The position numbers were made by a program, and so were the translations under genes. Shown here piece after piece: positions 3,585 through 45,742 of a stretch of 64,000 nt of DNA. This DNA is from a virus (Duplodnaviria > Caudoviricetes). Every line of letters begins with the position of its first letter. Position 1 is the stretch's first letter. A model generated the notes under the pieces. That model was not told the origin of the DNA. It saw only the letters and a program-made list of their open reading frames with translations, and did no database searches. The DNA is taken from IMG/VR virus record IMGVR_UViG_3300042010_000129, positions 247,965 through 311,964 of that record. One strand, 5' to 3'.

Positions 3585-3947
3585 TCAGAGTAGTTTCAAC
3601 AGCAGCCCACGAACCTTACGGCAAATCGCTTGCACCGAATCGTGCGCGGTAAACCCTTCGTATTTCGTGTGTTCGCCATTAATATCCGTTTCACCCTCGT
3701 AATGCCAATTCGTTTCTTCAAGGGTGAATTGAATGCTACCCGTACCCATATCAGAAACAAAATCAACGCGAGCGCTGTGATGCGGTTTGCCGTTGCCTAC
3801 GTTATCGTACTTGATATCGCATTTAATCAGACCCTTTCGGATTTCCTGAATGTTGTGCAATTGGTGTTTCAAGCTGCGAAGATCGAAGGTTTTCGGCTGG
3901 TGCATATCAGACAATGGCGAGGCTGCTAACGCGATAAATACTTCCAT
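3585..3947 (-). CDS. Hypothetical protein, possible head-internal protein (120 aa)
   Basis: AAGGAG SD; begins MEVFIALAASP; TAATTTA motif 27 nt upstream. Confidence 0.6.
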   Translation of the reverse strand: MEVFIALAASPLSDMHQPKTFDLRSLKHQLHNIQEIRKGLIKCDIKYDNVGNGKPHHSARVDFVSDMGTGSIQFTLEETNWHYEGETDINGEHTKYEGFTAHDSVQAICRKVRGLLLKLL

Positions 3948-3980: not shown

Positions 3981-4001
3981 CCCCGAACAGAAATTTTGGA
4001 C

Positions 4002-4040
4002 AAAAAAAAGCCCATACAGGCGGGGGAACCTGTATGGGCT
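4002..4040 (-). terminator. Rho-independent terminator
   Basis: 12-bp perfect stem AGCCCATACAGG/CCTGTATGGGCT followed by an 8-nt T-run on the minus strand. Confidence 0.85.
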
Positions 4041-4108
4041 AAATGCTGTGACATAAAGAGATACAACAAGCCTACCCTCGTAGACTATTAATAAATTAGT
4101 GACGTTTT

Positions 4109-10160: not shown

Positions 10161-11458
10161 AGACGTTTCCCAGCAGTCATTTCAAGGTCGGCGGCCTTTT
10201 CCAAAATCTTGTCGAGTTCAGGCCCTTGCATCAGACGCCCTACCGAAACAGATTTCAATTGCCGCAAGTCTTCCCCGGCATGCACTTTGTAATGACGCAA
10301 CGATTTGGTGTCTTCATTGTAAAGCACAAGCGTGTCAGACATGCCGTGTTCTTCAATGCTGACGATTACCCACTCGGCGTTATCCCGCGCAATCAGCACT
10401 TGTCCTTCTTGTGCCAATACCGCAGTTTCATCATCGACTGGTTCACCGTCTTCGTCGGTTTCCTGATCTTTGTGGAAATCCATTTCTGGATCTTCCTCTT
10501 CCTCAAAGTCTTCGTCTTCCAAAGGAGTAATACCCGGTTCTTCTCCTTTATTTACAGTATTGCCTCCGCTTTCCTCGGGGAAATCTTCCTGTTCGATTGG
10601 CGGATTCAGCAGATTTTCTTCGTCTTCCGGTTCGAAATCGAAATCTTCGTCGATATCTTTGTAATCGAAAGTGGTCACAAGCGGTTTATTTCGCACCACA
10701 TGTTTTGCACTTTCCGACTCGCCAGTTTTGGTCTGGCGTGGCAGCGGAACATCGCGTGGCTTGCGTGGGATTTTAATTGCCCGCGCACGCTTGGGAAGTT
10801 CTTTTGCCAGTTCCGCAAATTCGACGATGCCGGTCTGCTGTTGGGCACGCGGCTCAATGTCGGTATTGTTCGTGATTTGTTCGTACAGTTCGTGCGCGAT
10901 CAACACGCGTTCACCGTTCGGCATGATCACATAACCGCCATGGGATTTACGCAGGTAGCGCAGGCCCACAACGTCACCGGTTTTCAAAGTAGAACGGGAA
11001 GTCCCGTAATGCTTCGTGGTCACGGTGATGCTGTGCATTACCTTTCGCCACTGGTAATCGTCGCGGTCGTAACTGTGAACTTCGCGAGGCTTGCGCGGAC
11101 TCACATAAAACTGCGATTCTTGACGATCATTTTCCAGTTGGTTTTTGCGCATGTACTGGTGCCGGGCGCCTTCCTTTTTTGGCGCTTCCGGAATCCCTTT
11201 GTACTCTTTGAATTGCTTGATGAATTTGTCGATTTGATCCTGCTTGATCGACCGGTAAATCTTTTGCGGGTATTTGGCGAGTACCACTTGATACGCACCA
11301 GCGGTTGGCCCCCGTGTTGCTTTTCGGAAGCCAACCAAATCGTCAGTATCGACCGTGACAGGCGTATCGTCCAGCCGCAACTTAAAACTTTTACCCGCGT
11401 TGTACATCCATTCGAACTGCTTGAAATCAGCAGGTGATGCGGCAAGGGAAATAATCAT
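10157..11458 (-). CDS. Hypothetical protein with acidic region, possible virion protein (433 aa)
   Basis: Begins MIISLAASP; long D/E-rich linker. Confidence 0.6.
   Translation of the reverse strand: MIISLAASPADFKQFEWMYNAGKSFKLRLDDTPVTVDTDDLVGFRKATRGPTAGAYQVVLAKYPQKIYRSIKQDQIDKFIKQFKEYKGIPEAPKKEGARHQYMRKNQLENDRQESQFYVSPRKPREVHSYDRDDYQWRKVMHSITVTTKHYGTSRSTLKTGDVVGLRYLRKSHGGYVIMPNGERVLIAHELYEQITNNTDIEPRAQQQTGIVEFAELAKELPKRARAIKIPRKPRDVPLPRQTKTGESESAKHVVRNKPLVTTFDYKDIDEDFDFEPEDEENLLNPPIEQEDFPEESGGNTVNKGEEPGITPLEDEDFEEEEDPEMDFHKDQETDEDGEPVDDETAVLAQEGQVLIARDNAEWVIVSIEEHGMSDTLVLYNEDTKSLRHYKVHAGEDLRQLKSVSVGRLMQGPELDKILEKAADLEMTAGKRL
10549..10560 (-). promoter_or_regulatory. ATACTGTAAATA motif (intragenic, ~390 nt upstream of ligA)
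   Basis: Exact copy of the recurrent motif. Confidence 0.45.
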
Positions 11459-13122
11459 GTCACAATAATCTCTTTCGTCGCGGTGACTGTTTCGTGTTGG
11501 AGTGTGTAGGAAGTTTGCAGCGTGTACGTGCCCGGAACGGTTGCGGTTACAACACCGAGAACGATTGAAACGTTGTCGTCAGAACACCACCACAACGCGC
11601 TGGCTGTGCGCTCGGAACCATCGCTGAATTCGACCAGTGCCTGATATTGCGTAGGCACCAACACACGGAACGTTTCCGGCCCGGTAATGCGGGCATGGAT
11701 TGGATACGTGCGATTGTCGATAATGGTCACGGGCAAACTTGCTTCCAATTCAACACCGCTAATTGACAGCGTGGCGTAAACAGTCAGTTCTGCCGTTTCC
11801 ATTACCTGCACCGCGTGAAGAATTCCCGAATTGGTAATCGACGCGATATGGTTATTGGAAAGCGTCCACTTCGCAGGCAGCACAATGTCTGTACCGTCAG
11901 CATAAACAACGTGGAACTTCAGCGACTGGTATTCACCGACGTACATTGGCGAGCGCAATTCAATCCACGCGCTGACAGGCAGCGTAGCGGACGGCACAAC
12001 GTCAATGGTTTTGAAAGCCGAAAGGTTTTCATATTGCGCCATGAAATTTACGGATGTTTCCGCATCAACTTTTGGCGCTGCGTAGAACTGGTTGCCGTCG
12101 TCAAGGGCGCCAGCACTTGTTACCGTGTGAATCTTCGAGGTAACGGCCTTGCGTGTACCATCGCTAAAAATCAGCGTGGTGTAATACTGAACGACCAAAC
12201 CTTCACGAACTTTCGAAGGGCCTTCAATCTCCAACGATTCGGCGCGCACGGTTAAACCGACGACGCTCAATTCAATTGAAGCACTGGTAATAATTCCATC
12301 GTATTCGAAGACGCCAATAATCGTGGTGGTTTCCACGCCTTCGACTGCGTTGGCACAAAATGCACCGTTACATGAAATCGTACCGGCCTCGGGATTGGTG
12401 CTGACCCACGTCGCAACAACCTCGTTATTTTTGCCGTTATCAAAAAGAACGTCGAGGCCAAAACTGGCACGCGCACGTTCCATCACAATTGACGGCCCGA
12501 TCACATAAGCTCTGACCGGATAAATTGCAGAATCGACAACCAGAATGTCCATGAAAATCTGGCGCGTTACACCGTTCTCCGTGTAGGAGGCGGTAAAGCG
12601 AACCATTGCAGAGCCGCGAATCTTTTGGAAATGCGCAAGGCCCGTCGCGTCAATTGTGGCAACGCTTGGGCGGCTGGAAACAAAGGTAGTCGGTATAACA
12701 ATAGCGCTCGAACCGTTGTCGTAATTCGCAGTGACGACGTATGATTCTATTGTGTTTTTCTCCACTTCGGTTTTACCCGCAATGGAAATAGAAATGAGGG
12801 CAGGAGGCGTATCAACATCCCGCACATAAATGACAACTGTTGCAGTCAGCGTGGAATCCGATCCCGCGTGATAATACCTGCACAAGACTTGCACCGGGCG
12901 CGTACCCGTTTGCACAGAACCAGCAGTAAATAAACCACTCGGTGAAATCGTGCCGTACTGTTCGGAAGCAACAGACCATTCTGCCTCGACTTCGTGTTGC
13001 GAATTGTCGTCAAAAGTGGCGACCGCACGCATTTGGAAAGTCGAACGCTCCGCTATTGGAGCACTAGGGCCAACCAAATCCAGTTGGATTGGCACCAGTT
13101 CCTCAAAGCTAGTATCGGCCAT
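11455..13122 (-). CDS. Ig-like (Big_2-type) repeat protein, probable virion fibre/appendage (555 aa)
   Basis: About five repeats of I.I.GP..V....y...A.ysDGs.....W......atI...G.ltA; ATG at 13122 with GGAG SD preferred over the TTG at 13179. Confidence 0.7.
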   Translation of the reverse strand: MADTSFEELVPIQLDLVGPSAPIAERSTFQMRAVATFDDNSQHEVEAEWSVASEQYGTISPSGLFTAGSVQTGTRPVQVLCRYYHAGSDSTLTATVVIYVRDVDTPPALISISIAGKTEVEKNTIESYVVTANYDNGSSAIVIPTTFVSSRPSVATIDATGLAHFQKIRGSAMVRFTASYTENGVTRQIFMDILVVDSAIYPVRAYVIGPSIVMERARASFGLDVLFDNGKNNEVVATWVSTNPEAGTISCNGAFCANAVEGVETTTIIGVFEYDGIITSASIELSVVGLTVRAESLEIEGPSKVREGLVVQYYTTLIFSDGTRKAVTSKIHTVTSAGALDDGNQFYAAPKVDAETSVNFMAQYENLSAFKTIDVVPSATLPVSAWIELRSPMYVGEYQSLKFHVVYADGTDIVLPAKWTLSNNHIASITNSGILHAVQVMETAELTVYATLSISGVELEASLPVTIIDNRTYPIHARITGPETFRVLVPTQYQALVEFSDGSERTASALWWCSDDNVSIVLGVVTATVPGTYTLQTSYTLQHETVTATKEIIVT

Positions 13123-13148
13123 GAGAAAATATTCTCCATATTCAACGG

Positions 13149-13184
13149 AAAAAGCGGGGTGCCCAAAACAAATGGACAACCCGC
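13149..13184 (-). terminator. Probable intrinsic terminator between the two Ig-like genes
   Basis: Minus-strand GCGGGTTGTCC...GGGCACCCCGC stem (10 of 11 pairs) followed by TTTTT. Confidence 0.5.
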
Positions 13185-16178: not shown

Positions 16179-17819
16179 TTAATTCTCTTGGAAGCTGATA
16201 GAGGAACCGAAATTGCGGATATCGGCGGTCAGGGAAGCACGGCGGGCCGGAATGCTCGGGTCGATAACGAAATCGAGGTTGATATCGTTATTCGCGATAT
16301 CTGCCGGTTTGTTGTTACGGCTGTCGCAAATGGTTTCCCATTCGTACAAACCACGACCGCGTTTCACCGTTGCTGCTTCGGCGTCCACGATGTTTTTCAG
16401 CTGCTTGCGTTCGTAATCGTCGGCAGGGTTGAAAACCGATGGCAGGAAAGCACGACGAATCATTGCTTTGATGCCGTTTACCAGACGACGCACGTTCACG
16501 TTCTGGAAACCAGACGCGAAATTCTGCAAAGTCAGTTGTTCCATGATCACGAAACCACGGCCCGGAATTCGACGCACGTAGTTGATTTGCGCCTGTTCCA
16601 AAGCGTTGCGTTCGCGCAGGCTGTATTTCTTGGAAAGATCCGTGACTTTTACTTGACCACGATTCAAACCAGCCGGTGCCCAGTAGTAGGCACGAACGCG
16701 GTCGGTGTACGCGTATTGCGCAGCAACCAAACCGGAAATCGGGCAAAAGAATTTCTTGCCGGAAACGTCGTCGGTAATCTGACCACGCGGGCCATACATT
16801 GCCGAGTAGCTGGAACTCAGGTTCAGGATATTGCGACGGTAATTCACAGCACGCGAAACTTCTTCGTATTCGTGCGGCAAATCAACAATCGAAATCGCGT
16901 CACCGCGTGCAGTTGCTACGGCGTCAATGCGACGGTGAATGATCGGGTTTTCGTAACCACAACCAACCAGCAATTGCACTGCGAATTGATCAGTATCGTC
17001 GATGCCTTCCCATGCGTTGCTCACTTCGGCCACGGTCGCACGCGCACCATCGGCGCCACCATCCAGACGTTCGAAAGCAGAAGTGCGGATTTCAACCGGT
17101 GGGCAAAGCGAATTGTTTTTCACTTTGATGTATTGCGAGAATGCGTTTACACGCGACTCGACAAACATCTGATTGCCTTCGCCATCCAGTTCGAATTTAC
17201 GCGAACACAGATACGATTCAACCGGAATGCTGGCGCTGCCCTGATAATTCAGGAAAACTTCCAGATAGAAATGCGTTGGGTCATTGAATTCACCGACTTC
17301 GGTTCCTTCCGGGTTTGCCGGACGAACCAATACAGTCAGTGCGCCTGCCCAATCGCCGGGGCTATTCGCGCAAACGTAAAGCAAAGCGTTTTTAACGCCC
17401 GGCTCGTTTACGTTGAAACCCAACACGTCGAGCGGATTCCCCAATACGCCTTGCGGTTTGTTGGTTCCATCGTCGAAATTCACCAGTTTAATAACTGGTT
17501 CCAATGCAGCGCTATCGTCAACCGAAAGGTAGGCGCCAGCGGTGCGGGCGGTATCGGCGTTTACTGCGCGTTTAATCCACATTGCGGTTTGCACCAAAAC
17601 GTGTTCTGCGCAATGCATGCCGTAGCCGTATTTGGAATAGTTCTTGTCACCGAACTTTTCCTTCAAATCTTGCGTATCGGTAACGTAAATCCATTCCGAC
17701 GTAGAGCCGCGAGCGGACTCGATCACAGCAGCCGCAATAGAGCTAATGACCGGCGAACCGCGTTGACTTACGTCGCGATCCTGATCATAAACCCCAGCGC
17801 TGGAGTTGGTAAAAGCCAT
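16179..17819 (-). CDS. Contractile tail sheath protein (546 aa)
   Basis: N-terminal SAGVY; YYWAPAGLNRG; C-terminal VNVRRL and ICDSRNNKPADIANN signatures. Confidence 0.92.
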   Translation of the reverse strand: MAFTNSSAGVYDQDRDVSQRGSPVISSIAAAVIESARGSTSEWIYVTDTQDLKEKFGDKNYSKYGYGMHCAEHVLVQTAMWIKRAVNADTARTAGAYLSVDDSAALEPVIKLVNFDDGTNKPQGVLGNPLDVLGFNVNEPGVKNALLYVCANSPGDWAGALTVLVRPANPEGTEVGEFNDPTHFYLEVFLNYQGSASIPVESYLCSRKFELDGEGNQMFVESRVNAFSQYIKVKNNSLCPPVEIRTSAFERLDGGADGARATVAEVSNAWEGIDDTDQFAVQLLVGCGYENPIIHRRIDAVATARGDAISIVDLPHEYEEVSRAVNYRRNILNLSSSYSAMYGPRGQITDDVSGKKFFCPISGLVAAQYAYTDRVRAYYWAPAGLNRGQVKVTDLSKKYSLRERNALEQAQINYVRRIPGRGFVIMEQLTLQNFASGFQNVNVRRLVNGIKAMIRRAFLPSVFNPADDYERKQLKNIVDAEAATVKRGRGLYEWETICDSRNNKPADIANNDINLDFVIDPSIPARRASLTADIRNFGSSISFQEN

Positions 17820-30666: not shown

Positions 30667-33600
30667 TTAACGGGTTTTGTATTTGAAGGTAAGCTCAGAC
30701 AATTCTTTCAGCGCCTGATCTTTGTTCGACACGGTAACGTTGCGCGCTACTTCAGCAACCTTCGCTTTCAGGTCGGTTTTATTCTTCCCGAAATACATCC
30801 ATTCACCGTCAGTCTTCAACCACTTGGCGCCGGAGTTCGGAATAACTTTGCCGATGTGTTTGATGATGCCGGGGTTAGTCCGCAAGTCCACGCAAAGCAT
30901 CACGTGTTCTTCGGTGAAGATCGGGAACACACGAATGGCCCGACGGTTGCTGCTCATACGTTTCTGCACGCTGAAGAACGCAGGCAATTCACTTACCGGC
31001 GCCAGTTCCAAGCGATACCACAATTTGTGAGTGTTTTTCATACCTTCGTCAAATGCGCCGTTGATCGAAGCGAACAAATCGTTCGTCTTCTGATTAACTT
31101 CGAAGTTGTCGTAGATCCAATCATAAATTGCGTGGAATTTCTTCTTGTTCGAAACGTTGATGTACGCGTATGCCGGAGTGAATTTGAAACCTTGCTTCGA
31201 CAGATCCACATCGCCCGATTCCACGATTGCTTCCAGTGTTGCGAAGCCGTGGTAGTAGGCAGGATACAGCGAAATTTCTGCTGCTTCGATTTCTTCCGGC
31301 TCTTCAGGGAAATCCTCCTGCTCAACAATGACGCCGACTTTCGGATTGTCGGTTGGACGCAATTTCTTGCCGCCGCCGATTTTCACCGTACCGCCAGTTT
31401 CGTAAATGCCTTCGTTGAGTGGACGCCCTTTCTTTTCGTTCTCCGTGCGTTTCTCGCCGTCCTTCGCTTCCTTCTTGATAACGCGGATTTTTTCGCCTTC
31501 TTGTTTCTTCCGGATGCGCTCTTCGCGCTCTTCCTGTTCCGCTTGTTTGCGCTGCTGTTCTTCCAACCGCTTTTGGCGGGCGGCGGAACGTTTCTCTTCG
31601 GTGTCAGTACCAGCCAGCGACACGTCAAAGAATTGCGCTTCCTGTTCCGGCGAAATATTCTTCTGCGCAAGGTAAGCCATGTTCACTTGAACCGTCACAC
31701 GCCCCGGCATACCGGCAGGTGGATTTTTCAAGTTCACGATCAAGCTAGAAAGCTTACCGCCACGGGTGTTAAAGCCAACGATACGCCCGGTGCCCCATTC
31801 GGTAACAACCGGTTTCGTGCGCAATTTTTCGCTGAAGTTTTTCACGACTTCCGGATCACGCAGCAGAACTTCAACGTTCAGCAGACCCCAGTTGTGGTGG
31901 TCGGGAATTGGTTGGTTCGCAACGAACGGCACCAGTTCCATACGGGCCGAGCCTTCCAGATTTGGAGCGCCTTCAATCGGCAACATATCCGCTTTCATCG
32001 AATTGCGCATTTCTGCGAATTCTTTTGCTTCCACGGCGTTGAGGCGACGATATGCGTCTTCCATTTCGTTGAAAGGTTCGTCGTCGAGGCCAGCGGTCGA
32101 TGCAAGCATGTCCACACTGAGAGCCAAACGACGGTCGTCTTTTTCCGTTGGAACATTCACAGAAGCCAGCAATTCTTTGTACAACGGATTCGCTGCTTCG
32201 GTGATTCGAGCAACACCGAAAGTTTTGGAAATAACACGCGCCAGTTTCGGCACTTCCATGGTGTTGTCGGCCAGTACCCAATCCAGATAAACCACGTCAC
32301 GGGTCAAACCGCCTTCGCCTTTCGCCGCTGCAATTGCGCCCTTAGCATCTGGACGCCACACACGCGCAGCAGTTTGCGACAAAGCACCCGGCCCCCATGG
32401 GGCTTCTGCGCGAATCATTCGGCTTGCCAATTGAAGGTTGTGACCTTCGGACATGCCTTGTTCGTTCGCAATCAGAATTTGTACGCGATCATCGGTTTTG
32501 AAATCGTTGAAAGCTTTTACGCGATCAGGTTCGTCGCCGGTAAACTTCACCGCCATCGCCTGATAGTTCGGTGGCAATGCATCAAACACAGCCCGCGCAC
32601 TTGCGTTGTAACGCGTGATAATGATCAGCTTGCCCTTCGGTTCTGGCTTCCAATAATCTGGAGCTTCGACCGGAGTTTTCGATTGAACGTTATCAGGAAT
32701 TGCTACGCGAGTTTCGCCCGGATTGTATTTCCGTGCGACATACAGCTGGCCTTCGAAATCAACGAGGTCGAGTTCGATGTAGCGAGTGCCACGGCGCCAT
32801 TTCTGCGGGTTGAAGTGCTTGGCTGCAAGGTTCGCGATGTACTTCGCTTTACGCGAAATAAACCCTTCACCCATATTGCCGAAAACTTCGGTGTAGGCTT
32901 CGTCTTCCTGCGGGCAGATAATCAGGCGTTCGAAACGCGCAATGTTTTTCTCCCACAATTTCTGCGCGATTGCTTCGCCGGAGAAGTCGGAGTCGTTATC
33001 GACGAATTTATCGCCGTTACCTTCCTTGCCATCTTCCTCTTCGTCGTCGCTGTCGTCGCCACCGTTTTTCTCTGCGAGCGCTTCAGCTTTCGCTTTCTGA
33101 CGCAGCAGTGGTTCCATCTCTTCCAAGGTACGGTCGAGAACCAAACGGTACAATTGTTCGTGCAGTTTTTGCTGTTCGATTTCGGCAGGCGATGTTCCGT
33201 CTGCGCCGTCGTAGTCCACCATTGGAACCGGGTGGAAACTTTCGATAGCGGACGGCAGCATGTATGCCCAATCCTTTTTCTCTTTCACAATAAACGAAAT
33301 ATAGTGACCGAGTTTATCGACAGCACGTTTGCCGTTGAGCGGGGTGTAGGTGCTAATGATGCGATCACCGATTTTCACCAGACCGCTATCTTTTTCCGCT
33401 TCTTGATCAGGCTTGATATTCGCGATATCACCAGCACGGAAAACGTGCGGCGCTTTCAACGCGATTTGACCTTCGATATCTTTCGCCCGGTCAGGCATGA
33501 TCGTACCAGTCAGCAGGCGCAGCCATTTGACAGTGGTCGAAGAGGTAATGATTTTTACTGCACGGTGACGCGCAGATTTAAACGATTTCAAGTTGTGCGA

Positions 33601-36600
33601 TTCGTCGATTGCCACATAGTTGCAACCGAGGCGACGAATCAACTCAAGGTTTTGCGAGAAGTTAACCTGCGCGTTACCAATACACACGCGGGTATTCCGG
33701 CCTTGAACGAAAGTCATCGAACTGATAAAAATCGTGTTCGGTGGTGCGTTAACTGCCAGATCACTCAGGCGTTTTTCACCAACGGCTTTCATCCAACGTT
33801 GCAGAACTGCGGAACTGATCGGGAATGCGTTCCAATTGGAGCCTTGGAAATATTTCATTTCCTCACACCAAGTGTTGATCAGGCCGTTAGGGCAAATAAC
33901 CAACGGACGTACAACGGTGCCCGCTTCTTTCATGTCTTTCATCAGACATGCAATGTCGATAATGCCTTGACCGGTTTTACCACCGCCCGGCGCCAGTGCC
34001 AGAATTGCGAAGTTTGGCGGATTCTTTTTACGCAGCGAACTTTGCACCGATTCTTGGTGCGGGAAAATTGCACGGTCTTCACCGATTTTCCCCGGCATCT
34101 TGATATCTTCGGCGCTGAACGATGGATCGGGCTGGATAGACTCAGCCTGTTCAGTTGCTTCTGCGAAAATCGTTTCCGCATTTGGCGCATATTTCCCGAG
34201 CATTACAGCGAACGGCAGAACGTCACGGTACAGAGTGGCGTTAGCCTGTAGCGGCATGCTGATCGAGAAGTTTTGGCCCGGACGATCAGGCATTTCGCCC
34301 AAGTTCACAGTGGCCTGACCAGCGCGAGCATTCGCGTAGTGTTCGATTTCAACACTGTTGATCGCGTCGAGGATTTGCTTGAAAACTTGCCCACCGAAAT
34401 AACGGAACAGGCGCGAAAATTCTGCGGCGGTCGAAATCGTGGTGTTGAAATAATCCGGATGGTTTTCCAGTTCGAGACTGACTTCCGATGCACGCGGAGT
34501 TTTATCACCGTTGCGCAAATTCTCGAAAGTTTCGTTCCACAGGTGCGTGCCCTGTGCGCCGGAAGCCATGTCCATTGCAGTTTCCAACAGGCTTTGAATC
34601 ACGCCGCGAGTGTTGCCCTTTGCGCGATCCGGAAGCGTGCCTTCTGGTGTCAGAAACTTGATGTAATCCGGACTGTAATCGAAACCCGGTTCAGTCGGCA
34701 GCTTCGAGTAATTCAGGGCGCGCATTGCACTGCCCAACAATTCCGGAAGCTTTGGCACTTTGTTATCGACGTAGGCCAACCGCATATAGAGGTTGATCAG
34801 GTTCGAAGCCAATCCGCTTTTTGCGAATTTCAAATGGTCGTCAGCGGCGCCGTAAAGTTCTTCTGCGCGCTTGTACGCCCACGCGGTGTGTTCCCCGTGG
34901 TTCAGCGTGTACATGGCTTGCGCAAACGAACGCTTCATTGGTGTTTCGCCATCTTTGGCGAGGTTGAAGCCAAGCCAGTCAGCGATTGCCAAAGAATCCG
35001 GAGTTACTGCACCGACCGAAGTCGAAGTAACAGTGCGGCCCGGTGTGTCGGTTGCCTGAATGTTGATCCCGAAGTCCCAATCGAAACCGAGGGAACAGCC
35101 GTCGAAATCGTTCAGTTCTTTTACAAGTTCCTGCATGCGCTGCAAATCTTGCGCATCAACCCACGGCCATTTTTCTTCGCGGGGTTCGGCTTGGAAAGCA
35201 GCCAAAGGAATTTCGTTGCGGCTCAACAGTTCCAGCAATTCTTCCGAAACTTTCTCGAAATCTTCAGCCAGAGTAGTTTTTTGCAGCGCGTCGATACTTG
35301 GACGAACAGCCATCGTGCCCTGCGGCGTGATGAACATGTTTTCCGCGTTACCTTTGGTACGTTCAACAACGTAACCGAATTGTTCACGCAGCGCCGGGAT
35401 TTTCTTCAGCGTGGAAGCGCTGGTCGCGTAGCGCGGGATATGATCCATGTGAATTGCTTTGGTGTTGGTAATCTTGTAAGCCTTACCAGTACCCGTAACT
35501 TTCGCACGCAGAACCTGCGCGATGTACAGGGAGAACCAAGAATTCGCACGGGTCAAACTTGCGCGTTCGTTGGCCGGAGTTTGCGAAACAAAATGCGCGA
35601 TATCCGATTCCAGCGTGAAGCGGATCGAAGTACGAACGGTGATGTTCAGCAATTCCGATTCGGGAGTAATCTTCGGGCGTTCACCGTTCAATTGCTCTTC
35701 GATTTTCGCATTAACTGCGGTCGGACTCAGCGCCTGTTCGTTGAACGCTGGTTTGGTGTTGCGCAGTTTTTCAGTCAGTTTTTTAACAGCGTGGCTCGGC
35801 TGTTTAATCAGTTCGATTTGCAGGAACTGATCAGCGAACGGGTTGGACACAACCATGTCGGTGACGATTTCACCAGCAGTCGGCATTTTCAGGCCGGTGT
35901 GTTTCGTCCAGATTTTTTCAACGTCGCTGAATTTGGTGTTGAGCGGAACGCCACGGTGAATCATACGTTCGCTGCTGGCAGTGGTGCCGAACAGGAACAT
36001 GTGAATTTCACGCGCTGCTGCCAAAATCTTTTCGCCCATCGACGATTGCCACGTGCCCTTACGGCGCATTTCAGTCAGTGGGAAATCGTTGTTGGTTTCC
36101 AGATATTCGCTGCGACCGAGTTCGAAGTCGGACACACCGAAATACGGCGCAGGCAGACCTTCTTTTTCAGGGTCAGCACCGGCACCCATCAGCACCACGT
36201 CGAGGCCTTCGTTATAGCGCTTCGAGCGGTAAACGTTGTGGAAGCTGTGCGCAGTACGACGCGAAGCACGCAGGAAGTTTACAACGTCTTCCTGAATGGA
36301 ACCGGACGTGCGCTTCGAATGGAACACTTGCACAAAAATCGAAGAAATCAATTCTTCGTTCTGTTCGTCGGTGTTCATCGACATAACGTTTGCGCGGCCC
36401 ATACAGATACGGACGAAACGCAAAAACATGTTGAGGTTGGAAGTTACGTCGCTCAGCGATTCCAGAATCGGAACCAGAAAGTTACGCTCTTTCTTCGGGT
36501 AGAAAAAAGATTCGTATTCGAGGTTTCGCGCAGGTTCCAGCGAAATGGTACGAATAGATTTTACGAATTCGGAACTGTCGTCGCCCTGTTCGTCTTCGTC

Positions 36601-36741
36601 ATCGTCGTCGCCATCTTCATCACCGTTCGCACGGGCGTAGGCACTCAGCTGTTCGGAAAGTTCTTCCTGCTGCTGAAGTTCCATGCGCTTTTTACGCAAA
36701 GCATCTGCGATTGGATTTTCTCGCCACTGTACACGATTCAT
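30667..36741 (-). CDS. Giant SNF2-family ATPase/helicase (2024 aa)
   Basis: Motif I APGGGKT, Ia LVICPNGLINTW, II IDESHNLK, III LLTGT, V GMSEGHNLQLAS, VI WGPGALSQTAARVWR; ~970-aa unassigned N-terminus. Confidence 0.85.
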   Translation of the reverse strand: MNRVQWRENPIADALRKKRMELQQQEELSEQLSAYARANGDEDGDDDDEDEQGDDSSEFVKSIRTISLEPARNLEYESFFYPKKERNFLVPILESLSDVTSNLNMFLRFVRICMGRANVMSMNTDEQNEELISSIFVQVFHSKRTSGSIQEDVVNFLRASRRTAHSFHNVYRSKRYNEGLDVVLMGAGADPEKEGLPAPYFGVSDFELGRSEYLETNNDFPLTEMRRKGTWQSSMGEKILAAAREIHMFLFGTTASSERMIHRGVPLNTKFSDVEKIWTKHTGLKMPTAGEIVTDMVVSNPFADQFLQIELIKQPSHAVKKLTEKLRNTKPAFNEQALSPTAVNAKIEEQLNGERPKITPESELLNITVRTSIRFTLESDIAHFVSQTPANERASLTRANSWFSLYIAQVLRAKVTGTGKAYKITNTKAIHMDHIPRYATSASTLKKIPALREQFGYVVERTKGNAENMFITPQGTMAVRPSIDALQKTTLAEDFEKVSEELLELLSRNEIPLAAFQAEPREEKWPWVDAQDLQRMQELVKELNDFDGCSLGFDWDFGINIQATDTPGRTVTSTSVGAVTPDSLAIADWLGFNLAKDGETPMKRSFAQAMYTLNHGEHTAWAYKRAEELYGAADDHLKFAKSGLASNLINLYMRLAYVDNKVPKLPELLGSAMRALNYSKLPTEPGFDYSPDYIKFLTPEGTLPDRAKGNTRGVIQSLLETAMDMASGAQGTHLWNETFENLRNGDKTPRASEVSLELENHPDYFNTTISTAAEFSRLFRYFGGQVFKQILDAINSVEIEHYANARAGQATVNLGEMPDRPGQNFSISMPLQANATLYRDVLPFAVMLGKYAPNAETIFAEATEQAESIQPDPSFSAEDIKMPGKIGEDRAIFPHQESVQSSLRKKNPPNFAILALAPGGGKTGQGIIDIACLMKDMKEAGTVVRPLVICPNGLINTWCEEMKYFQGSNWNAFPISSAVLQRWMKAVGEKRLSDLAVNAPPNTIFISSMTFVQGRNTRVCIGNAQVNFSQNLELIRRLGCNYVAIDESHNLKSFKSARHRAVKIITSSTTVKWLRLLTGTIMPDRAKDIEGQIALKAPHVFRAGDIANIKPDQEAEKDSGLVKIGDRIISTYTPLNGKRAVDKLGHYISFIVKEKKDWAYMLPSAIESFHPVPMVDYDGADGTSPAEIEQQKLHEQLYRLVLDRTLEEMEPLLRQKAKAEALAEKNGGDDSDDEEEDGKEGNGDKFVDNDSDFSGEAIAQKLWEKNIARFERLIICPQEDEAYTEVFGNMGEGFISRKAKYIANLAAKHFNPQKWRRGTRYIELDLVDFEGQLYVARKYNPGETRVAIPDNVQSKTPVEAPDYWKPEPKGKLIIITRYNASARAVFDALPPNYQAMAVKFTGDEPDRVKAFNDFKTDDRVQILIANEQGMSEGHNLQLASRMIRAEAPWGPGALSQTAARVWRPDAKGAIAAAKGEGGLTRDVVYLDWVLADNTMEVPKLARVISKTFGVARITEAANPLYKELLASVNVPTEKDDRRLALSVDMLASTAGLDDEPFNEMEDAYRRLNAVEAKEFAEMRNSMKADMLPIEGAPNLEGSARMELVPFVANQPIPDHHNWGLLNVEVLLRDPEVVKNFSEKLRTKPVVTEWGTGRIVGFNTRGGKLSSLIVNLKNPPAGMPGRVTVQVNMAYLAQKNISPEQEAQFFDVSLAGTDTEEKRSAARQKRLEEQQRKQAEQEEREERIRKKQEGEKIRVIKKEAKDGEKRTENEKKGRPLNEGIYETGGTVKIGGGKKLRPTDNPKVGVIVEQEDFPEEPEEIEAAEISLYPAYYHGFATLEAIVESGDVDLSKQGFKFTPAYAYINVSNKKKFHAIYDWIYDNFEVNQKTNDLFASINGAFDEGMKNTHKLWYRLELAPVSELPAFFSVQKRMSSNRRAIRVFPIFTEEHVMLCVDLRTNPGIIKHIGKVIPNSGAKWLKTDGEWMYFGKNKTDLKAKVAEVARNVTVSNKDQALKELSELTFKYKTR

Positions 36742-39010: not shown

Positions 39011-39856
39011 TTAGAAGAAAACGTGACCGCGAACGCGAGTCATGAACTCTTCGAAGAATGCCGGGCGACGTGCGAAAACGCGGCTGTAGAACGAAGAGAA
39101 ACGATCAACGTCGGCAGCCGATGCAACGGCGATGGAATCTTGAATTTCTTCTTCTTCCAGTTCGACGGCGCCAGCGGTAACAACGATCATTTCGCGATGC
39201 ACGGTTTCGGTTTGGCCGTTCGGACGAACAACGAAAATGTCCGGGGTTGGCGAACCGTCTTCGTGGTCGATGGAAGCACAGGCAATACCCATTTGCAGGT
39301 CAGCCGATTGCTGCGAAACGTAGGTAATCAGGTCGCCGCCTTCAACCATTGCGCGATCCTGCGAGGATTGCAGGTGCAGGTTTTTGTTGTTGAAATCGTT
39401 CACGTCGGATTTGGCAACGGCCAGCAATTGCTGCATTACCAGAGTGTCGTCAGCGCAAACGGATTTAACCATTACTTCGCCGGTTGCAGTTTTGCGCAGA
39501 GTCCACAGATTTTCGTCTGCGTCCATGTACATGTTGGCCGCGACCGCTTTGAAGTTCGGGCGATTGCCTTCGTTCACGACAACGCGTTCGGAAACGACGC
39601 CGACGATACCTTCGAAGTGATGCAGGGTCGGTTCAGCGGCCAGCGAAACGAACGAACCGTGAATCGGGGAAACGCCTTTGAATTGCGCTTTGATACCGGC
39701 GAAAACTTGTTCAGCAGTTGCGCCAGCGGAAGCAACGGCGACAACGCGCATGAAACGGTCGTCGATTGGAAAGGCTTCGCGAATTTCTACTTTGGTTACG
39801 GCGGTTTTGCCGGAAGTAACCAGCGCATCGCGGGCTTTGGTAGCGTTGAAAGTCAT
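39011..39856 (-). CDS. Probable virion (head) protein (281 aa)
   Basis: GGAG SD; TAATTTA upstream; terminator downstream; contains VAVASA, IACAS and IAVASA motifs. Confidence 0.55.
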   Translation of the reverse strand: MTFNATKARDALVTSGKTAVTKVEIREAFPIDDRFMRVVAVASAGATAEQVFAGIKAQFKGVSPIHGSFVSLAAEPTLHHFEGIVGVVSERVVVNEGNRPNFKAVAANMYMDADENLWTLRKTATGEVMVKSVCADDTLVMQQLLAVAKSDVNDFNNKNLHLQSSQDRAMVEGGDLITYVSQQSADLQMGIACASIDHEDGSPTPDIFVVRPNGQTETVHREMIVVTAGAVELEEEEIQDSIAVASAADVDRFSSFYSRVFARRPAFFEEFMTRVRGHVFF

Positions 39857-39883
39857 GTGGTAAATCTCCAGAGGATGTATGAT

Positions 39884-39890
39884 TAAATTA
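39884..39890 (-). promoter_or_regulatory. Candidate late promoter element TAATTTA
   Basis: 28 nt upstream of the 39856 start. Confidence 0.45.
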
Positions 39891-39909
39891 CGAATTGTTT
39901 ATTCGTCAG

Positions 39910-42029: not shown

Positions 42030-43160
42030 TTACTTCAGCGTCAGGCTGTAGGAGTGAACGTTCTGGTCAATGTTGCGCAGCGAACGCACATAACCTTTCT
42101 TCAACAACGCTTTGACTTGTGGCAGGCCGTCGAAGATCCGAATAACCTGCGCCTGAATCTCACGATCATCGTCAGGGAATTCGAGAATAACTTCGTTCTC
42201 TTCCACGTTAACGCCGGACACGCCTTCGATGGCGGAAAGCCGCGTGGTGACTTCGGTCGCGTCGAGATTGAGGTCTGCTTTGGTAGCAAACATCACAACG
42301 TCATGGCGAGCGATTTCGCGGTCGATATCTTTGACGAAATTCTTCGCGATTGCAGCGGTGTTTTCGCCTTTGATTTCGGTGCCGAGGTTGTACAGGTACG
42401 GCAGCGCCACGCGATCCAAAATGTTCACGTAGGTGCGAATTGCGAACGCGCTTTCGGTTGGTTCCAGACGCGCAGTAACCACGACGACCAGCGCCTTGTG
42501 GAAACCTTCGCTGAAATTGCGCCAGTGCGTAACGTCGCAGTTCAACACGAAATCAATACCGCCGTCTTTGGCGCCGACGTTGATGTAATAGGCGAGTTCG
42601 TCTTCTGCTTCGTCGCCTTCAGCACGATTTTCAACGTGCGTTTTTTCCATGCCGTCGAAATACTTCTGAATGCGCTTGAACAGATCGCCAACTTCGTCAG
42701 GCATTACGTTGTCGGACATTTCCGACATTGCGTGCAGCGCTTCGGCGTAAACTTCAGCCAGTGCGTTGCGGTTTTTGATCATGTCTTTGACCAGCGCTTT
42801 CATGCCTTCGTTTTCGGTGGCACTGCACTTGTCGATAATGGCGTCGAGTTCGTCAATCGCGCCACGCATTTCGAGGGCGTCGATATTCTTTTGCAGTTGA
42901 CGCGGGCCGGGCATCTTGATCTTTTGAACAGTCAGGCCGTAACCGCCAGCGCCGCCCTTGCTATCGGAACCGCCGCGAACTTCGCGAACCTTTACCGAAC
43001 TTGCAGTGGCTACTTTCGAGCGGAAAGCTTTACCGAAAAAGATACGCAACAGGCTGGTGAATTTCGACAGCAGACGACGGTACGAAGACTTCCGTTTGCT
43101 GTAGTATTTTGCAGCCTGTTCCGGCGTCATACGCTGGATGAAACTCAGGTCTTGTTTCAT
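42030..43160 (-). CDS. Probable virion protein (376 aa)
   Basis: KVATASS motif at residues ~48-54, after a basic N-terminal peptide. Confidence 0.5.
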   Translation of the reverse strand: MKQDLSFIQRMTPEQAAKYYSKRKSSYRRLLSKFTSLLRIFFGKAFRSKVATASSVKVREVRGGSDSKGGAGGYGLTVQKIKMPGPRQLQKNIDALEMRGAIDELDAIIDKCSATENEGMKALVKDMIKNRNALAEVYAEALHAMSEMSDNVMPDEVGDLFKRIQKYFDGMEKTHVENRAEGDEAEDELAYYINVGAKDGGIDFVLNCDVTHWRNFSEGFHKALVVVVTARLEPTESAFAIRTYVNILDRVALPYLYNLGTEIKGENTAAIAKNFVKDIDREIARHDVVMFATKADLNLDATEVTTRLSAIEGVSGVNVEENEVILEFPDDDREIQAQVIRIFDGLPQVKALLKKGYVRSLRNIDQNVHSYSLTLK

Positions 43161-44159
43161 TTAGGATTCCATGATTGTGTTGAGTTTGTCTTTTTCTGTT
43201 TTGCCAACGTTGAGTAACTTCGTCAGCTTATTCAGGGATCGCACATCGTAGATTTTCCGACGGCCCACGATGAAGGAAATCATGAAATTGTTTCCATACT
43301 GCGACACGCGATGGATGATATCGGTGTTTGGCAAATTCACAGCCCGGCGTAGGTACGGCAATACGCGGGTCAGGAACTTATTGATATCTTCCGGCTTCAC
43401 AAACGGTTTCAACACAACGTTTAGGCGGTCGTCAGTTACATCGACGCTTTTCACCAGTTTGGAAGCGAGCAATTTATCGTCTTTCGGCACCGGTTTGTCG
43501 ATGTAATCGAAATCGGAAAGGTTGCCCATGATGTAGGTCTGCACGTCCTTTGCCGAATCAACGCCGGTTTCTTCGGACAATACAAACGGGGAATCAGGAA
43601 TTGCAATGCGGTATTGCCCGCCGTACAGCGTGAGCTTAACGGTGATTGGCCCGCTAACGAATCCGTTTTTATCCTGCACACCATTGTCTGTCCGGAAACA
43701 AATCATTTGGTATTCAGGCAAACGAATGTGCAATTGCGTTGTGTGGCTGATCTTCGAAAGGAAACGATACACAATTTCCGACAGGTAATTGAGGTGCTTG
43801 TCCATTCGACTGGAACAAACGCTATCAATCAAATCCATCAAAGTCTTTTGGAATGCGCGGATGTTCTGTTGCTGTGCGGCAATCATTTGGAAACAGCGAT
43901 CACGTTTCGAATCGCTGAAGTCTTGAGCGACGGTGCGCGCACAACGAAGTTCCACCAATGAATCGACGCAGAATGTCAGAGCTTCCACACCATCGGATAC
44001 CTTGAGGAATGGCAGCTTCTTTTGGTTGAATTTCGAAACCAAAACGCTGGTAGCCGTGTTGATCCGGGTTAATACCGTTACGACTTCGTTTGCGTTTCGG
44101 GCATTTTTAAGATCAATGATATTTGGGTTATCATCAATGTATTTTGATTGTATTTGCAA
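43161..44159 (-). CDS. Hypothetical protein (332 aa)
   Basis: First gene after a terminator and a TAATTTA motif; TTG start per the ORF track. Confidence 0.5.
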   Translation of the reverse strand: MQIQSKYIDDNPNIIDLKNARNANEVVTVLTRINTATSVLVSKFNQKKLPFLKVSDGVEALTFCVDSLVELRCARTVAQDFSDSKRDRCFQMIAAQQQNIRAFQKTLMDLIDSVCSSRMDKHLNYLSEIVYRFLSKISHTTQLHIRLPEYQMICFRTDNGVQDKNGFVSGPITVKLTLYGGQYRIAIPDSPFVLSEETGVDSAKDVQTYIMGNLSDFDYIDKPVPKDDKLLASKLVKSVDVTDDRLNVVLKPFVKPEDINKFLTRVLPYLRRAVNLPNTDIIHRVSQYGNNFMISFIVGRRKIYDVRSLNKLTKLLNVGKTEKDKLNTIMES

Positions 44160-44191
44160 TGCACGTACACCCGAATATGTGGATATACAAT

Positions 44192-44198
44192 TAAATTA
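44192..44198 (-). promoter_or_regulatory. Candidate late promoter element TAATTTA
   Basis: 33 nt upstream of the 44159 start. Confidence 0.4.
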
Positions 44199-44211
44199 TG
44201 GTCTAGATAGC

Positions 44212-44251
44212 AAAAAACCCGCCTCCCCTTTTACAGAGAGACGGGTTTTTT
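44212..44251 (-). terminator. Rho-independent terminator after the histone-like gene
   Basis: CCCGTCTCTCT...GGGGAGGCGGG stem (G-U pairs on the minus strand) flanked by A6 and T6. Confidence 0.75.
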
Positions 44252-44277
44252 GTTTGAATCAAACTGCGAATCAGGTA

Positions 44278-45666
44278 TTAGCTGAAACGAGCTTTTGGAA
44301 CGGCACCACCGGTTTTCTTACCGGCTGCTGCTTTGGCCGGAGCGGCTTTAGCGCTAGGCGCTTTGGCTGCTGGCTTTTTCGCGGCTGCGGCTTTGGTCGG
44401 TGCTTTCGCGGCTGGCTTTTTGGCGGAAGTTTTACCGGCAGTTTTACCTGCGGTTTTGCTACCGGCTGGAGCCTTGGCGGATTTCTTTTCAGCCGATTTG
44501 GCCGGGGCTTTTGCAGCGGCTTTCACCGGTGCTTTAGCTTCGGTTTCTTTCGGCTTGTTTTTCGAACCAGCCGGACGGCCACGCTTTTTGGCTACAGGAG
44601 CTTCAGCGGCTGGCGCTTTGGCTGCTGGCTTTTTAGCGGCGGCTTTTTTGGTTGGTGCTTTTGCAGCTGGTTTTGCAGCCGGAGCGGCAGCAGCTTTTTC
44701 GGCGTTCGATTTACGACCGCGTTTTTTCGCTGGGGTGCCGTCTTTGTTCAGCTTGGCAGCAGGTGCAGCAGCCGTTTTGGCAGCCGGTTTAGCGGCGGCT
44801 TTTTTGGTTGCTGGTTTTGCAGCCGGGGCAGCGGCAGGAGCGGCGGCAGCTTTCGGCTTACGACCGCGTTTCTTGGCCGGGGTGCCGTCTTTGTTCAGCT
44901 TCACGGCTGGCGCAGCAGGGGCGTTCGAAGCGGCTGGTTTAGCAGCGGCTTTAGGCGCCTTTTTGGTCACGCCGCCAGCGGCTTTTTTGGCTGCTGGTTT
45001 TTTGGTGCCGAAGTGTTTTGCAGCAATGCGTGCAACGCCGTCTTTCGCAGCTTTCGCGCCGATATCAACCAGACGTTTGCCTGCGGACGAAATCGGTTTG
45101 GCTTTGAAATTGCTGATCAGGGACTTCAGGGAGAATTTACCCTTTGGCTTGATCTTCTGCATTGCCTTCTTGTGGTTGGCAGCAGCTTTGGTACGCTCGG
45201 CAGCGAGGTTTTTACGCTCGTTTGCGTAGCGGCTCTTTTCGGCTTGACGCATCGCGGCGCGTTTGGCAGGCGGCACTTTTGCAGAACGAATCTTGCTCAG
45301 ATTCTTCTGGTGAGCGCTTTGCAGGCCCAGCGATTTTTTCCGGATTTGTTCACGGATTTGACGCTGTGCAGCAGTCACTTCACGCTTTTGACCAGCAGCG
45401 TGCGAACCAGCGGCGCGGTGCTTACGGCGTTTTTTCCACGCGGCAACCACTTTCTTCGCTTCGGCTTCGGTGGCACCGTGGCGCATGGCCTTGGTGAACA
45501 CTTGGCGAGCGTGAAACTTCAGCTTTTCAGCTGGAGTCATGGTTTTGTATTTCTGTTTGGCAAGCTTGTTCAGCTTGGTGCGGTTTTTCCGGCGGTATTG
45601 TTTGCCTTTCTTGGCCTCTTTAATGGCCTCGGCTCCCTTCCGCTTTTGTACGACTTTCATAACCAT
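44278..45666 (-). CDS. Histone H1-like Lys/Ala/Pro-rich DNA-binding protein with AT-hook-like motifs (462 aa)
   Basis: C-terminal half of KPAAK/PAAK repeats; KKRGRKP, KKRGRKS and KKRGRPAGSKNK; GAGGA SD; own upstream motif and terminator. Confidence 0.8.
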   Translation of the reverse strand: MVMKVVQKRKGAEAIKEAKKGKQYRRKNRTKLNKLAKQKYKTMTPAEKLKFHARQVFTKAMRHGATEAEAKKVVAAWKKRRKHRAAGSHAAGQKREVTAAQRQIREQIRKKSLGLQSAHQKNLSKIRSAKVPPAKRAAMRQAEKSRYANERKNLAAERTKAAANHKKAMQKIKPKGKFSLKSLISNFKAKPISSAGKRLVDIGAKAAKDGVARIAAKHFGTKKPAAKKAAGGVTKKAPKAAAKPAASNAPAAPAVKLNKDGTPAKKRGRKPKAAAAPAAAPAAKPATKKAAAKPAAKTAAAPAAKLNKDGTPAKKRGRKSNAEKAAAAPAAKPAAKAPTKKAAAKKPAAKAPAAEAPVAKKRGRPAGSKNKPKETEAKAPVKAAAKAPAKSAEKKSAKAPAGSKTAGKTAGKTSAKKPAAKAPTKAAAAKKPAAKAPSAKAAPAKAAAGKKTGGAVPKARFS

Positions 45667-45735
45667 CGTGCGAATCCTCGATTAAGGGTGTGTAGTTGGC
45701 TTAATCGTAGCGCCACGATGCGTACCAACTAATAA

Positions 45736-45742
45736 TAAATTA
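45736..45742 (-). promoter_or_regulatory. Candidate promoter element TAATTTA
   Basis: 70 nt upstream of the histone-like gene, in an AT-rich gap. Confidence 0.4.

Follow-up and report, generated by a model that had tools for sequence, protein, structure and literature searches.

Within a 64,000-nucleotide (nt) stretch of a tailed-phage genome (IMG/VR record IMGVR_UViG_3300042010_000129, positions 247,965 to 311,964; hereafter the window), the minus-strand gene at positions 44278 to 45666 encodes P0001, a polycationic protein in which a basic helical domain is followed by a disordered tail with AT-hook motifs. We consider the chances about even that P0001 is a late, virion-packaged protein that neutralizes and condenses DNA and is lineage specific to jumbo phages of the Lu11/HRDY3/PaBG type. 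The reality of the gene, the architecture of its product, the conservation of its motifs, its synteny, and its regulatory elements are established directly here. The window is part of a jumbo myophage genome with ~78% DNA identity to Pseudomonas phage HRDY3 (313 kb), Lu11 being more distant, and nine or more metagenome studies, of rhizosphere, plants, soil, and food, contain DNA that is nearly identical to it.

The open reading frame (ORF) is uninterrupted from its ATG start through its stop codon and specifies 462 amino acids (aa). As the initial annotation of this DNA had proposed, it represents a genuine gene, which is monocistronic. P0001 has an isoelectric point (pI) of 11.6 and a net charge of +112, by far the largest among the window proteins. 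The parts of the gene and its product, including the AT-hook motifs of the tail, are given below (P numbers denote family members; the structural model is from AlphaFold2 [AF2], with its confidence given as the predicted local distance difference test [pLDDT]).

44278 to 45666, minus strand: coding sequence (CDS) of the polycationic protein P0001, stop codon included; orthologs are HRDY3 XDJ15192 and Lu11 gp111, with 13 metagenomic homologs.
45022 to 45666, minus strand: basic all-helical N-terminal domain (N-domain), aa 1 to 215, net charge +52 (alignments A2 to A4; AF2); AMRHGATEAEA and ISN..P.S..GKRL are invariant.
44281 to 45021, minus strand: disordered Ala/Lys/Pro tail, aa 216 to 462, net charge +60 (composition; pLDDT below 50 for most of aa 220 to 456).
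44857 to 44901, minus strand: repeat copy 1, KLNKDGTPAKKRGRK, aa 256 to 270, an RGRKP-type variant hook reading KKRGRKP, as in the core of MeCP2 AT-hook 2.
44710 to 44754, minus strand: repeat copy 2, KLNKDGTPAKKRGRK, aa 305 to 319, an RGRKS variant without Pro; removed by a 52-aa deletion in P0004 and P0005.
44554 to 44589, minus strand: canonical type I AT-hook, KKRGRPAGSKNK(PK), aa 360 to 371; the same hook is present in P0007 to P0009, P0014 to P0016, and P0019.
44281 to 44310, minus strand: conserved C-terminal end motif GGAVPKARFS; in A2 and A4, residues G454, A455, P457, and K458 hardly vary.

The N-domain is rich in Lys, Arg, and Ala, and AF2 predicts helices at aa 12 to 27, 29 to 41, 45 to 62, 67 to 86, 90 to 128, and 133 to 171, with a block of pLDDT 85 to 98 over aa 11 to 170. 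This conserved 215-aa helical domain, which was absent from the initial annotation, is the part that defines the family. The tail (aa 216 to 461; 37% Ala, 24% Lys, and 12% Pro) corresponds to the region described there as K/A/P repeats; such a region is present, but its length is ~246 aa instead of ~270 aa. The proposed H1/AlgP-like character of the tail was borne out, as it is Ala/Lys/Pro-rich and disordered. Tail length and module content differ even among near-identical relatives, and a GG-containing C-terminal end recurs in distant family members. Two plus-strand ORFs (599 aa and 298 aa) over the DNA of the gene were rejected as by-products of GC-rich repetitive codons. Likewise, the possibility that ORF 44278-45666 is itself a low-complexity artifact was ruled out by the conserved N-domain, by synteny, and by PaBG proteomics.

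Three AT-hook-type motifs and an internal duplication had been noted in the tail. The 15-aa sequence KLNKDGTPAKKRGRK is indeed present twice, with a period of 147 nt at the DNA level, although the coordinates first given for the copies were ~9 nt off. All three motifs are present as well, but the canonical RGRP core is found in only one of them: the third (KKRGRPAGSKNK) is a textbook type I hook, whereas the two duplicated motifs have noncanonical RGRK cores. An AT_hook core, R-G-R-P flanked by Lys/Arg, was found at aa 360 to 373 (KKRGRPAGSKNKPK), and 12 of the 12 residues of RGRPAGSKNKPK agree with the plant AHL type I consensus RGRPAGSKNKPKP (PMC7896510). AT-hook 2 of MeCP2, with the core KKRGRKP, binds DNA with an AT preference that is barely detectable in vitro (PMC5028900). 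As RGRPAGSKNKPK matches the AHL type I consensus and KKRGRKP resembles the low-preference MeCP2 hook, P0001 combines one canonical hook with two weak variants. The RGR pattern of the tail is more than chance, since six of its seven Arg residues (all six internal ones, among 60 Lys) lie inside the three RGR cores, and three or more RGR occurred in 0 of 200,000 composition-preserving shuffles of the tail; even one RGR arose in ~1% of them. The Pfam AT_hook model (PF02178) did not match P0001 itself even at an E value of ≤10; it matched 4 of 12 relatives (best E value, 2.2e-6), and P0015 carries a precomputed PF02178 assignment.

Hooks of the GR[PK] type occur in 21 of the 24 family members, in 1 to 7 copies each, so that hook number ranges from 0 to 7 across the family. 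Spacers and hook number change freely, and repeat number and tail length vary just as freely (proteins of 272 to 479 aa overall) while the hook persists. RGRPAGSKNK(P/A)K (RGRPAGSKNKPK) is kept in relatives with N-domain identities of 37 to 53%, and the module KKDGTPAKK.GRKPK is conserved in Lu11 gp111, P0011, and P0014 to P0016. In P0004 and P0005 (410 aa), the N-domain is 100% identical to that of P0001, and exactly one repeat unit is missing. Given this one-unit deletion and the retention of hooks, the tail evolves through gain and loss of units under selection for hooks. At least one of the motifs, the textbook type I hook, is maintained by selection across relatives with only ~37% N-domain identity.

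The Lu11 and HRDY3 proteins (gp111, YP_006382641.1, and XDJ15192.1) are orthologs of P0001, with N-domain identities of 57 to 60% and shared synteny and leader. Their hooks differ from the two RGRK and one RGRPAGSKNK of P0001: Lu11 gp111 has seven GR[PK] hooks (six PGRPKKTP and one PGRKPK), and the HRDY3 protein has two RGRGRPKMTEEQK hooks. In distant members, other basic repeat modules take the place of the hooks or accompany them; examples are QPE(W/Y)KG(T/G)RKS...W(E/Q)K.TGKK in P0019, P0021, and P0022, APKAKRAYNKKPKADAPAAE in P0018 (six copies), and KMGPNDGPQISKNRLTRRRN in P0020 (two copies). A basic helical head joined to a modular polycationic tail is the constant design of the family.

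An exhaustive profile search of 1.84 billion cluster representatives placed the N-domain in an orphan family of 12 clusters, all of 272 to 475 aa. P0001 has the N-domain features of this Lu11 gp111/PaBG gp191 family, namely, an AMRHGATEAEA-type helix-turn-helix and ISN..P.S..GKRL, and homology within the family was detected at E values of 1e-119 to 3e-5, with PaBG recovered by hhalign. Among cultured phages, direct searches found the family in Lu11 (gp111) and HRDY3 only. The N-domain family is confined to Lu11/HRDY3/PaBG-type jumbo phages. Neither P0001 nor its N-domain had a Pfam, PHROG, or NCBIfam match. With the N-domain, a PDB sequence profile search returned nothing, Foldseek returned nothing from the PDB at an E value of ≤0.001, and an ESM Atlas feature search gave no usable match. 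VIA-align searches (wide and atlas) recovered generic helical hairpins. The best structural match, the phasin PhaP (5ip0; Z, 10.7; root mean square deviation, 5.0; 103 residues aligned), falls short of the Z of ~13 required for helical folds, unrelated hairpins score equally well, and the match to a T7 gp14-like atlas cluster (listed TM score, 0.51) is also generic. As the fold searches returned generic helical hairpins only, the fold of the N-domain provides no functional lead. The gene is not in the closest virus record, a 35-kb fragment (G001), and in the published literature we found no mention of HRDY3 and no link between AT-hooks and jumbo phages.

Evidence that proteins of this family are part of the virion comes from phage PaBG, which has homologs of the neighbors of the P0001 gene. 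The PaBG slot after sbcD is occupied by CDS 139631-140629 (O152_gp295, YP_008433514.1), which encodes a 332-aa protein with a pI of 11.3 and is PaBG_00191 (gp191) in the supplementary annotation of the PaBG paper itself. Aligned by hhalign, gp191 matched the N-domain profile at 94.7% probability (E value, 6e-8; 168 columns). Like P0001, gp191 consists of a basic helical head and a K/A/P tail encoded in the same slot after sbcD, and its transcription unit likewise has a TAATTT box, a leader hairpin with a GGCGCU loop, and a terminator. Unlike P0001, it is 332 aa long and has a K/A/T/P-repeat tail with no GRP or RGR hook. Table 1 of the PaBG study lists "gp191, 35,272.92 Da, Unknown" in band 8 among 14 Coomassie-detectable proteins of CsCl-purified virions, and the protein was detected in several gel bands; its histone-like nature was not remarked on by the authors (PMC7412058). 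The mass computed for CDS 139631-140629 (35,272.47 Da) agrees with that of gp191, and gp202, encoded eleven places farther downstream, confirms the numbering (221,161.95 Da in the table versus 221,159.27 Da computed). Since slot, hhalign, leader, mass, and the PaBG_00191 name agree, the remote homolog and positional equivalent of P0001 appears to be an abundant virion component. Within the family, proteomic data are available for PaBG alone.

The P0001 gene occupies the slot after an sbcD-like gene and forms its own transcription unit. The dedicated upstream motif and terminator of the initial annotation are real and conserved, and a leader hairpin lies between the upstream motif and the start codon. 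The elements of the unit are as follows.

45736 to 45742, minus strand: TAATTTA promoter-like box, conserved at 8 orthologous loci; the ATG lies ~70 nt downstream.
45693 to 45731, minus strand: structured 5′ leader, outer stem AGTTGG/CCAACT; inner hairpin at 45704 to 45719 with an invariant GGCGCU loop.
45675 to 45679, minus strand: Shine-Dalgarno GAGGA within the conserved block TTAATCGAGGA, 8 nt upstream of the ATG.
44205 to 44252, minus strand: intrinsic terminator, a 12-bp G+C-rich stem extended by A/U pairs and followed by a U-run; starts ~25 nt after the stop codon.

A sigma-70 scan upstream of the gene found no promoter. The two-level hairpin begins 7 to 9 nt past the TAATTT(A/G) box, and the box, the hairpin, and TTAATCGAGGA are all conserved. 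The same leader fold was found in six of seven loci with varying stems. The outer stem changes from AGTTGG/CCAACT here to CTGCTGG/CCAGCAG in locus L008 and CATCGAG/CTCGATG in PaBG; the inner stem is ATCGT/ACGAT, ATCGC/GCGAT, or AACGT/GCGTT, with ACCTT/AAGGT in PaBG and a register-shifted CCUAUG/CAUGGG in L008. Covariation is evident, as 92.9% of cells are paired, both sides have changed in four of six pairs, and the score was reached by 0 of 500 shuffles. The element is unique in the window, and an Rfam search of the leader gave only sub-threshold chance matches. We read the hairpin as a probable 5′-terminal structured leader, and the invariance of its GGCGCU loop suggests that a trans-acting factor recognizes it, for autoregulation or mRNA stabilization.

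The terminator folds at −30.7 kcal/mol (z, −5.4; 0 of 200 shuffles); it was missed by a simple terminator scan, the loop limit of which it exceeds, and was recovered by folding. Equivalent terminators follow the gene in all other loci, among them L003, L005, L006, L008, L010, and PaBG. Such an insulated unit, conserved out to PaBG, is consistent with an abundant, separately controlled product. Four RNA-type runs returned only short contig pieces of relatives and 30- to 40-nt low-complexity matches in the K/A/P-coding region. The downstream gene (332 aa; PHROG 30603) has its own TAATTTA box 33 nt upstream, right behind the terminator of the H1-like gene (44160 to 44204); it starts with TTG at 44159 here and with ATG in a metagenomic relative, the protein beginning with MQIQSK in both.

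Two promoter-like classes were recognized in the window. The motif ACTGTAAATA, annotated as "middle/late" by the authors of the Lu11 record, has nine occurrences, every one of them on the gene strand; the genes for the DNA polymerase and the clamp loader are among those that it precedes. TAATTT[AG] has six sites, all on the gene strand and none on the other, and all intergenic by their coordinates relative to the listed ORFs.

45736, 44192, 39884, 17888, 4092, and 3974, minus strand: TAATTT[AG] sites (window motif scan).

These precede the H1-like gene, the next gene (44192), a 281-aa gene (39884), the tail sheath gene (17888), and two units near position 4000. The same TAATTT sites, including the one before the sheath gene, are present in Lu11 but are not annotated in its record. 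The H1-like gene carries TAATTT[AG] and not the ACTGTAAATA box. Because its box is common to the sheath gene and not to the replication genes, late expression in the structural class is suggested.

Lu11 gp106 was considered as the gene under the TAATTTA box at 39884 and was ruled out, as the 281-aa gene of the window is Lu11 gp105, a hypothetical protein. Lu11 gp106 itself ("major head protein"; 287 aa; L011 22478-23341) has no counterpart in the window (39857 to 39909) or in HRDY3, in both of which the gp105 homolog directly follows the connector-like gene; it is either a Lu11-specific insertion or a doubtful annotation. Since the 281-aa gene is gp105 and gp106 has no counterpart, we make no claim that a capsid gene shares the TAATTT box. 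On the minus strand at 3990 to 4098, a TAATTTA box comes first, then a 5′ hairpin (AGUCUAC/GUAGGCU), and ~85 nt beyond it a very strong terminator hairpin with U8 (whole stretch, −39.5 kcal/mol; z, −5.1). Lying just upstream of the next TAATTTA-driven gene (3585 to 3947), this stretch is a candidate small RNA or very short ORF unit.

The position of the P0001 gene is constant. In every locus recovered (HRDY3, Lu11, four metagenomic lineages, and PaBG were compared for synteny), it directly follows the gene for the SbcD-like nuclease, and gaps of 50 to 170 nt separate it from both neighbors. Downstream of it lies a conserved block encoding proteins of ~330, 350 to 400, 290 to 300, and 400 aa, the last of which is a depositor-annotated head-tail connector (PHROG 17327). 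Nearly all genes of the window are on the minus strand.

On the proposal that P0001 is a DNA-condensing virion protein, its gene, a strongly insulated unit of its own, would be transcribed late, and the product would enter the virion together with the genome. Through its disordered Ala/Lys/Pro tail (net charge, +60), the protein would bind DNA electrostatically, like the C-terminal domain of linker histone H1. In AT-hook fashion, the three RGR cores would place Arg residues in the narrow minor groove at A/T runs, which would strengthen binding and direct it preferentially to AT-rich DNA. The N-domain, basic and helical (net charge, +52), may provide a second nucleic acid- or protein-binding surface. 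Jointly, tail, hooks, and N-domain would neutralize the charge of the phosphates and contribute to condensing the ~300-kb genome while the head fills or afterward, and the protein would probably remain on the DNA through injection. The steps that we infer are binding to DNA, a preference for AT, late expression, packaging in this phage, and coinjection. Compaction of phage or host DNA had been proposed in the initial annotation; the phage DNA part of that proposal gains experimental, though indirect, backing from the abundance in virions of gp191, the positional and remote homolog in PaBG.

Several observations weigh against this proposal. The virion evidence concerns a homolog with ~29% identity over 168 columns and no AT-hooks, its identification in PaBG virions was made from matrix-assisted laser desorption ionization (MALDI) fingerprints of gel bands, and a protein so basic could copurify by sticking to DNA or capsids. 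In the Lu11 and HRDY3 records, the ortholog is called hypothetical, and neither marks it as structural. The A[VT]A[ST] motif, which recurs in the candidate processed head proteins of this phage, is absent from P0001. Two of its three hooks are RGRK variants, the MeCP2 counterpart of which has little AT preference (PMC5028900). Furthermore, the tail sheath gene is the one gene of known function on which the "late" class is based, and the P0001 gene abuts sbcD within a region rich in replication and recombination genes.

The location directly after sbcD, among replication and repair genes, would suit an intracellular nucleoid-associated protein that coats replicating phage DNA or the host chromosome and reaches virions by incidental carry-over. 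The DNA-binding features of P0001 apply equally to such a protein, whose possible purposes include DNA organization, host transcription shut-off, exclusion of MvaT/MvaU-type silencers, and nuclease block. The window has ~50% G+C and 11.6 W6 tracts per kb, compared with ~3 per kb expected by arithmetic for a host-like genome of 62% G+C (host not identified), so an AT-biased binder would favor phage over Pseudomonas DNA. The AT-seeking silencers MvaT and H-NS likewise prefer AT-rich DNA as substrate. However, the promoter box is common to the tail sheath gene and not to the replication genes, and PaBG gp191 is abundant enough in virions to be detected with Coomassie. We regard this intracellular role as a real possibility, distinctly less probable than a packaged DNA-condensing protein. 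A function in head assembly is very unlikely in our judgment; here the helical hairpin N-domain would be a prohead scaffold or core, the basic tail would later engage incoming DNA or the portal, and the main role would be morphogenetic and not DNA condensation. The gene does lie directly upstream of the block with the depositor-annotated head-tail connector gene, the protein has long helical hairpins of a kind seen in many scaffolds and internal virion proteins (the matches, however, are generic), and the presence of PaBG gp191 in several bands fits processing. Scaffolds, however, are usually acidic or neutral and are expelled, whereas P0001 has a charge of +112 and minor-groove motifs under selection, and the fold matches are below the level meaningful for helical proteins.

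The least probable of the readings considered is that the bound polyanion is something other than DNA, either RNA (for a translation or mRNA stability factor, as with the H1-like PhaF tail) or polyphosphate granules (as with AlgP). In Pseudomonas, RNA is the reported target of the K/A/P tail of PhaF and polyphosphate that of the K/A/P tail of AlgP (PMC12818456, PMC9239181), and the leader hairpin of the gene, with its invariant loop, could be a protein-binding operator. Yet the strongest conservation signal of the tail is that of the HMGA/AHL-type RGRP/GRP hooks, which are DNA minor-groove motifs, and the presence of the PaBG homolog in the virion fits DNA better than RNA or polyphosphate.

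Packaging may extend to a second protein. The 2,024-aa SNF2-type ATPase of the window (30667 to 36741, minus strand) has 35% full-length identity to PaBG O152_gp284 (gp202 of the PaBG paper), which is the 221-kDa top band of the virion proteome (PMC7412058). As this ortholog is in the virion proteome, the giant ATPase is probably packaged too. An improbable but more elaborate scenario would then be a "chromatin plus remodeler" kit in the head, in which the H1/HMGA-like coat enters the cell on the genome and shields the AT-richer phage DNA from restriction, CRISPR, or MvaT-type silencing, after which the copackaged SNF2 ATPase strips or slides it and so makes the DNA accessible for transcription; through the invariant GGCGCU leader loop, P0001 itself or a partner would gate translation of the coat protein.

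The most acidic protein of the window is a 642-aa protein (1587 to 3515, minus strand) with a net charge of −73 and a run of ~60 Asp/Glu. It contains eight copies of A[VT]A[ST], a motif found twice in the 281-aa protein (39011 to 39856) and once each in the 376-aa protein (42030 to 43160), the tail sheath protein (16179 to 17819), and the 574-aa protein (11455 to 13179). Cleavage by a prohead protease may take place at this motif, which would then mark scaffold or core proteins, and the acidic protein could be a polyanionic counterpart to the polycation P0001.

P0001 shares its short minor-groove motif, the presence of several hooks per chain, and a disordered backbone with HMGA1/2, plant AHL type I proteins, and MeCP2 (PF02178), but has no acidic C-terminal tail (HMGA), PPC domain (AHL), or MBD (MeCP2). 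The AT-hook motifs are too short to tell convergence from transfer. The membership in the HMGA or H1 families implied by the initial annotation did not hold. An HMGA protein has three hooks and an acidic C-terminal tail in ~100 aa, whereas P0001 is 462 aa long with a tail of +60 and a 215-aa helical N-domain. No Pfam match to the winged helix of H1/H5 (PF00538) was obtained, and the model consists of all-helical hairpins with no beta wing. Similarly, Hc1 (PF07432) had no match at an E value of ≤10 in 12 family members, and P0001 had no Pfam match to the phasin family PF05597 and no Pfam or NCBIfam match to H-NS/MvaT/Lsr2, its RGR cores lying in a disordered tail and not in a folded domain. Silencers of this type also have an N-terminal oligomerization domain, and the helical N-domain of P0001 might oligomerize as well.

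In its Ala/Lys/Pro-rich disordered polycationic tail, P0001 resembles the C-terminal domain of H1, AlgP, PhaF, Chlamydia Hc1/Hc2, and the HMGA-like or H1-like domain of Myxococcus CarD. With PhaF and CarD it also shares a folded or helical N-terminal module ahead of the basic tail, although the N-domain of P0001 belongs to an unrelated orphan family. In CarD orthologs, AT-hook and H1-like tails substitute for each other. Unlike H1 and its bacterial look-alikes, P0001 is phage encoded and probably virion borne. Virion-packaged basic DNA-condensing proteins include adenovirus protein VII, baculovirus P6.9, and the T4 internal proteins IPI to IPIII; these travel with the genome and enter the cell, as proposed for P0001, but have no sequence or fold relation to it. 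To our knowledge, no H1/AT-hook-type protein of a tailed phage has been described as a DNA-condensing component of the virion. Hc1-like (PF07432) "histone H1-like" genes have been found in metagenomic jumbo "moraphages," for which the authors speculated about genome compaction during packaging (PMC12619734). These genes share with P0001 a jumbo phage origin and a linker histone-like composition but belong to another family (P0001 has no PF07432 match), with no AT-hooks reported and no virion evidence. The P0001 family is an undescribed one in which known chemistry is put to use in an unusual setting.

The DNA packaged by tailed phages is generally regarded as essentially naked, its charge neutralized by ions and polyamines. 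Condensation with the help of proteins is associated with viruses of eukaryotes (adenovirus VII, viral histones), along with a small number of special cases among phages. If P0001 is indeed an abundant jumbo phage virion protein that combines linker histone chemistry with eukaryote-style AT-hooks, it would be a clear bacterial-virus analog. The idea is directly testable, as Lu11, HRDY3, and PaBG are cultured, and it offers a plausible role for the "unknown" PaBG virion protein gp191. Our analysis also defines an orphan helical domain family and, for this phage group, brings to light a leader RNA element with covariation as well as a second class of promoter-like sites (TAATTT). Should P0001 enter the cell on the DNA, it would bear on how jumbo phages that do not form a nucleus guard their incoming genomes from host defenses.

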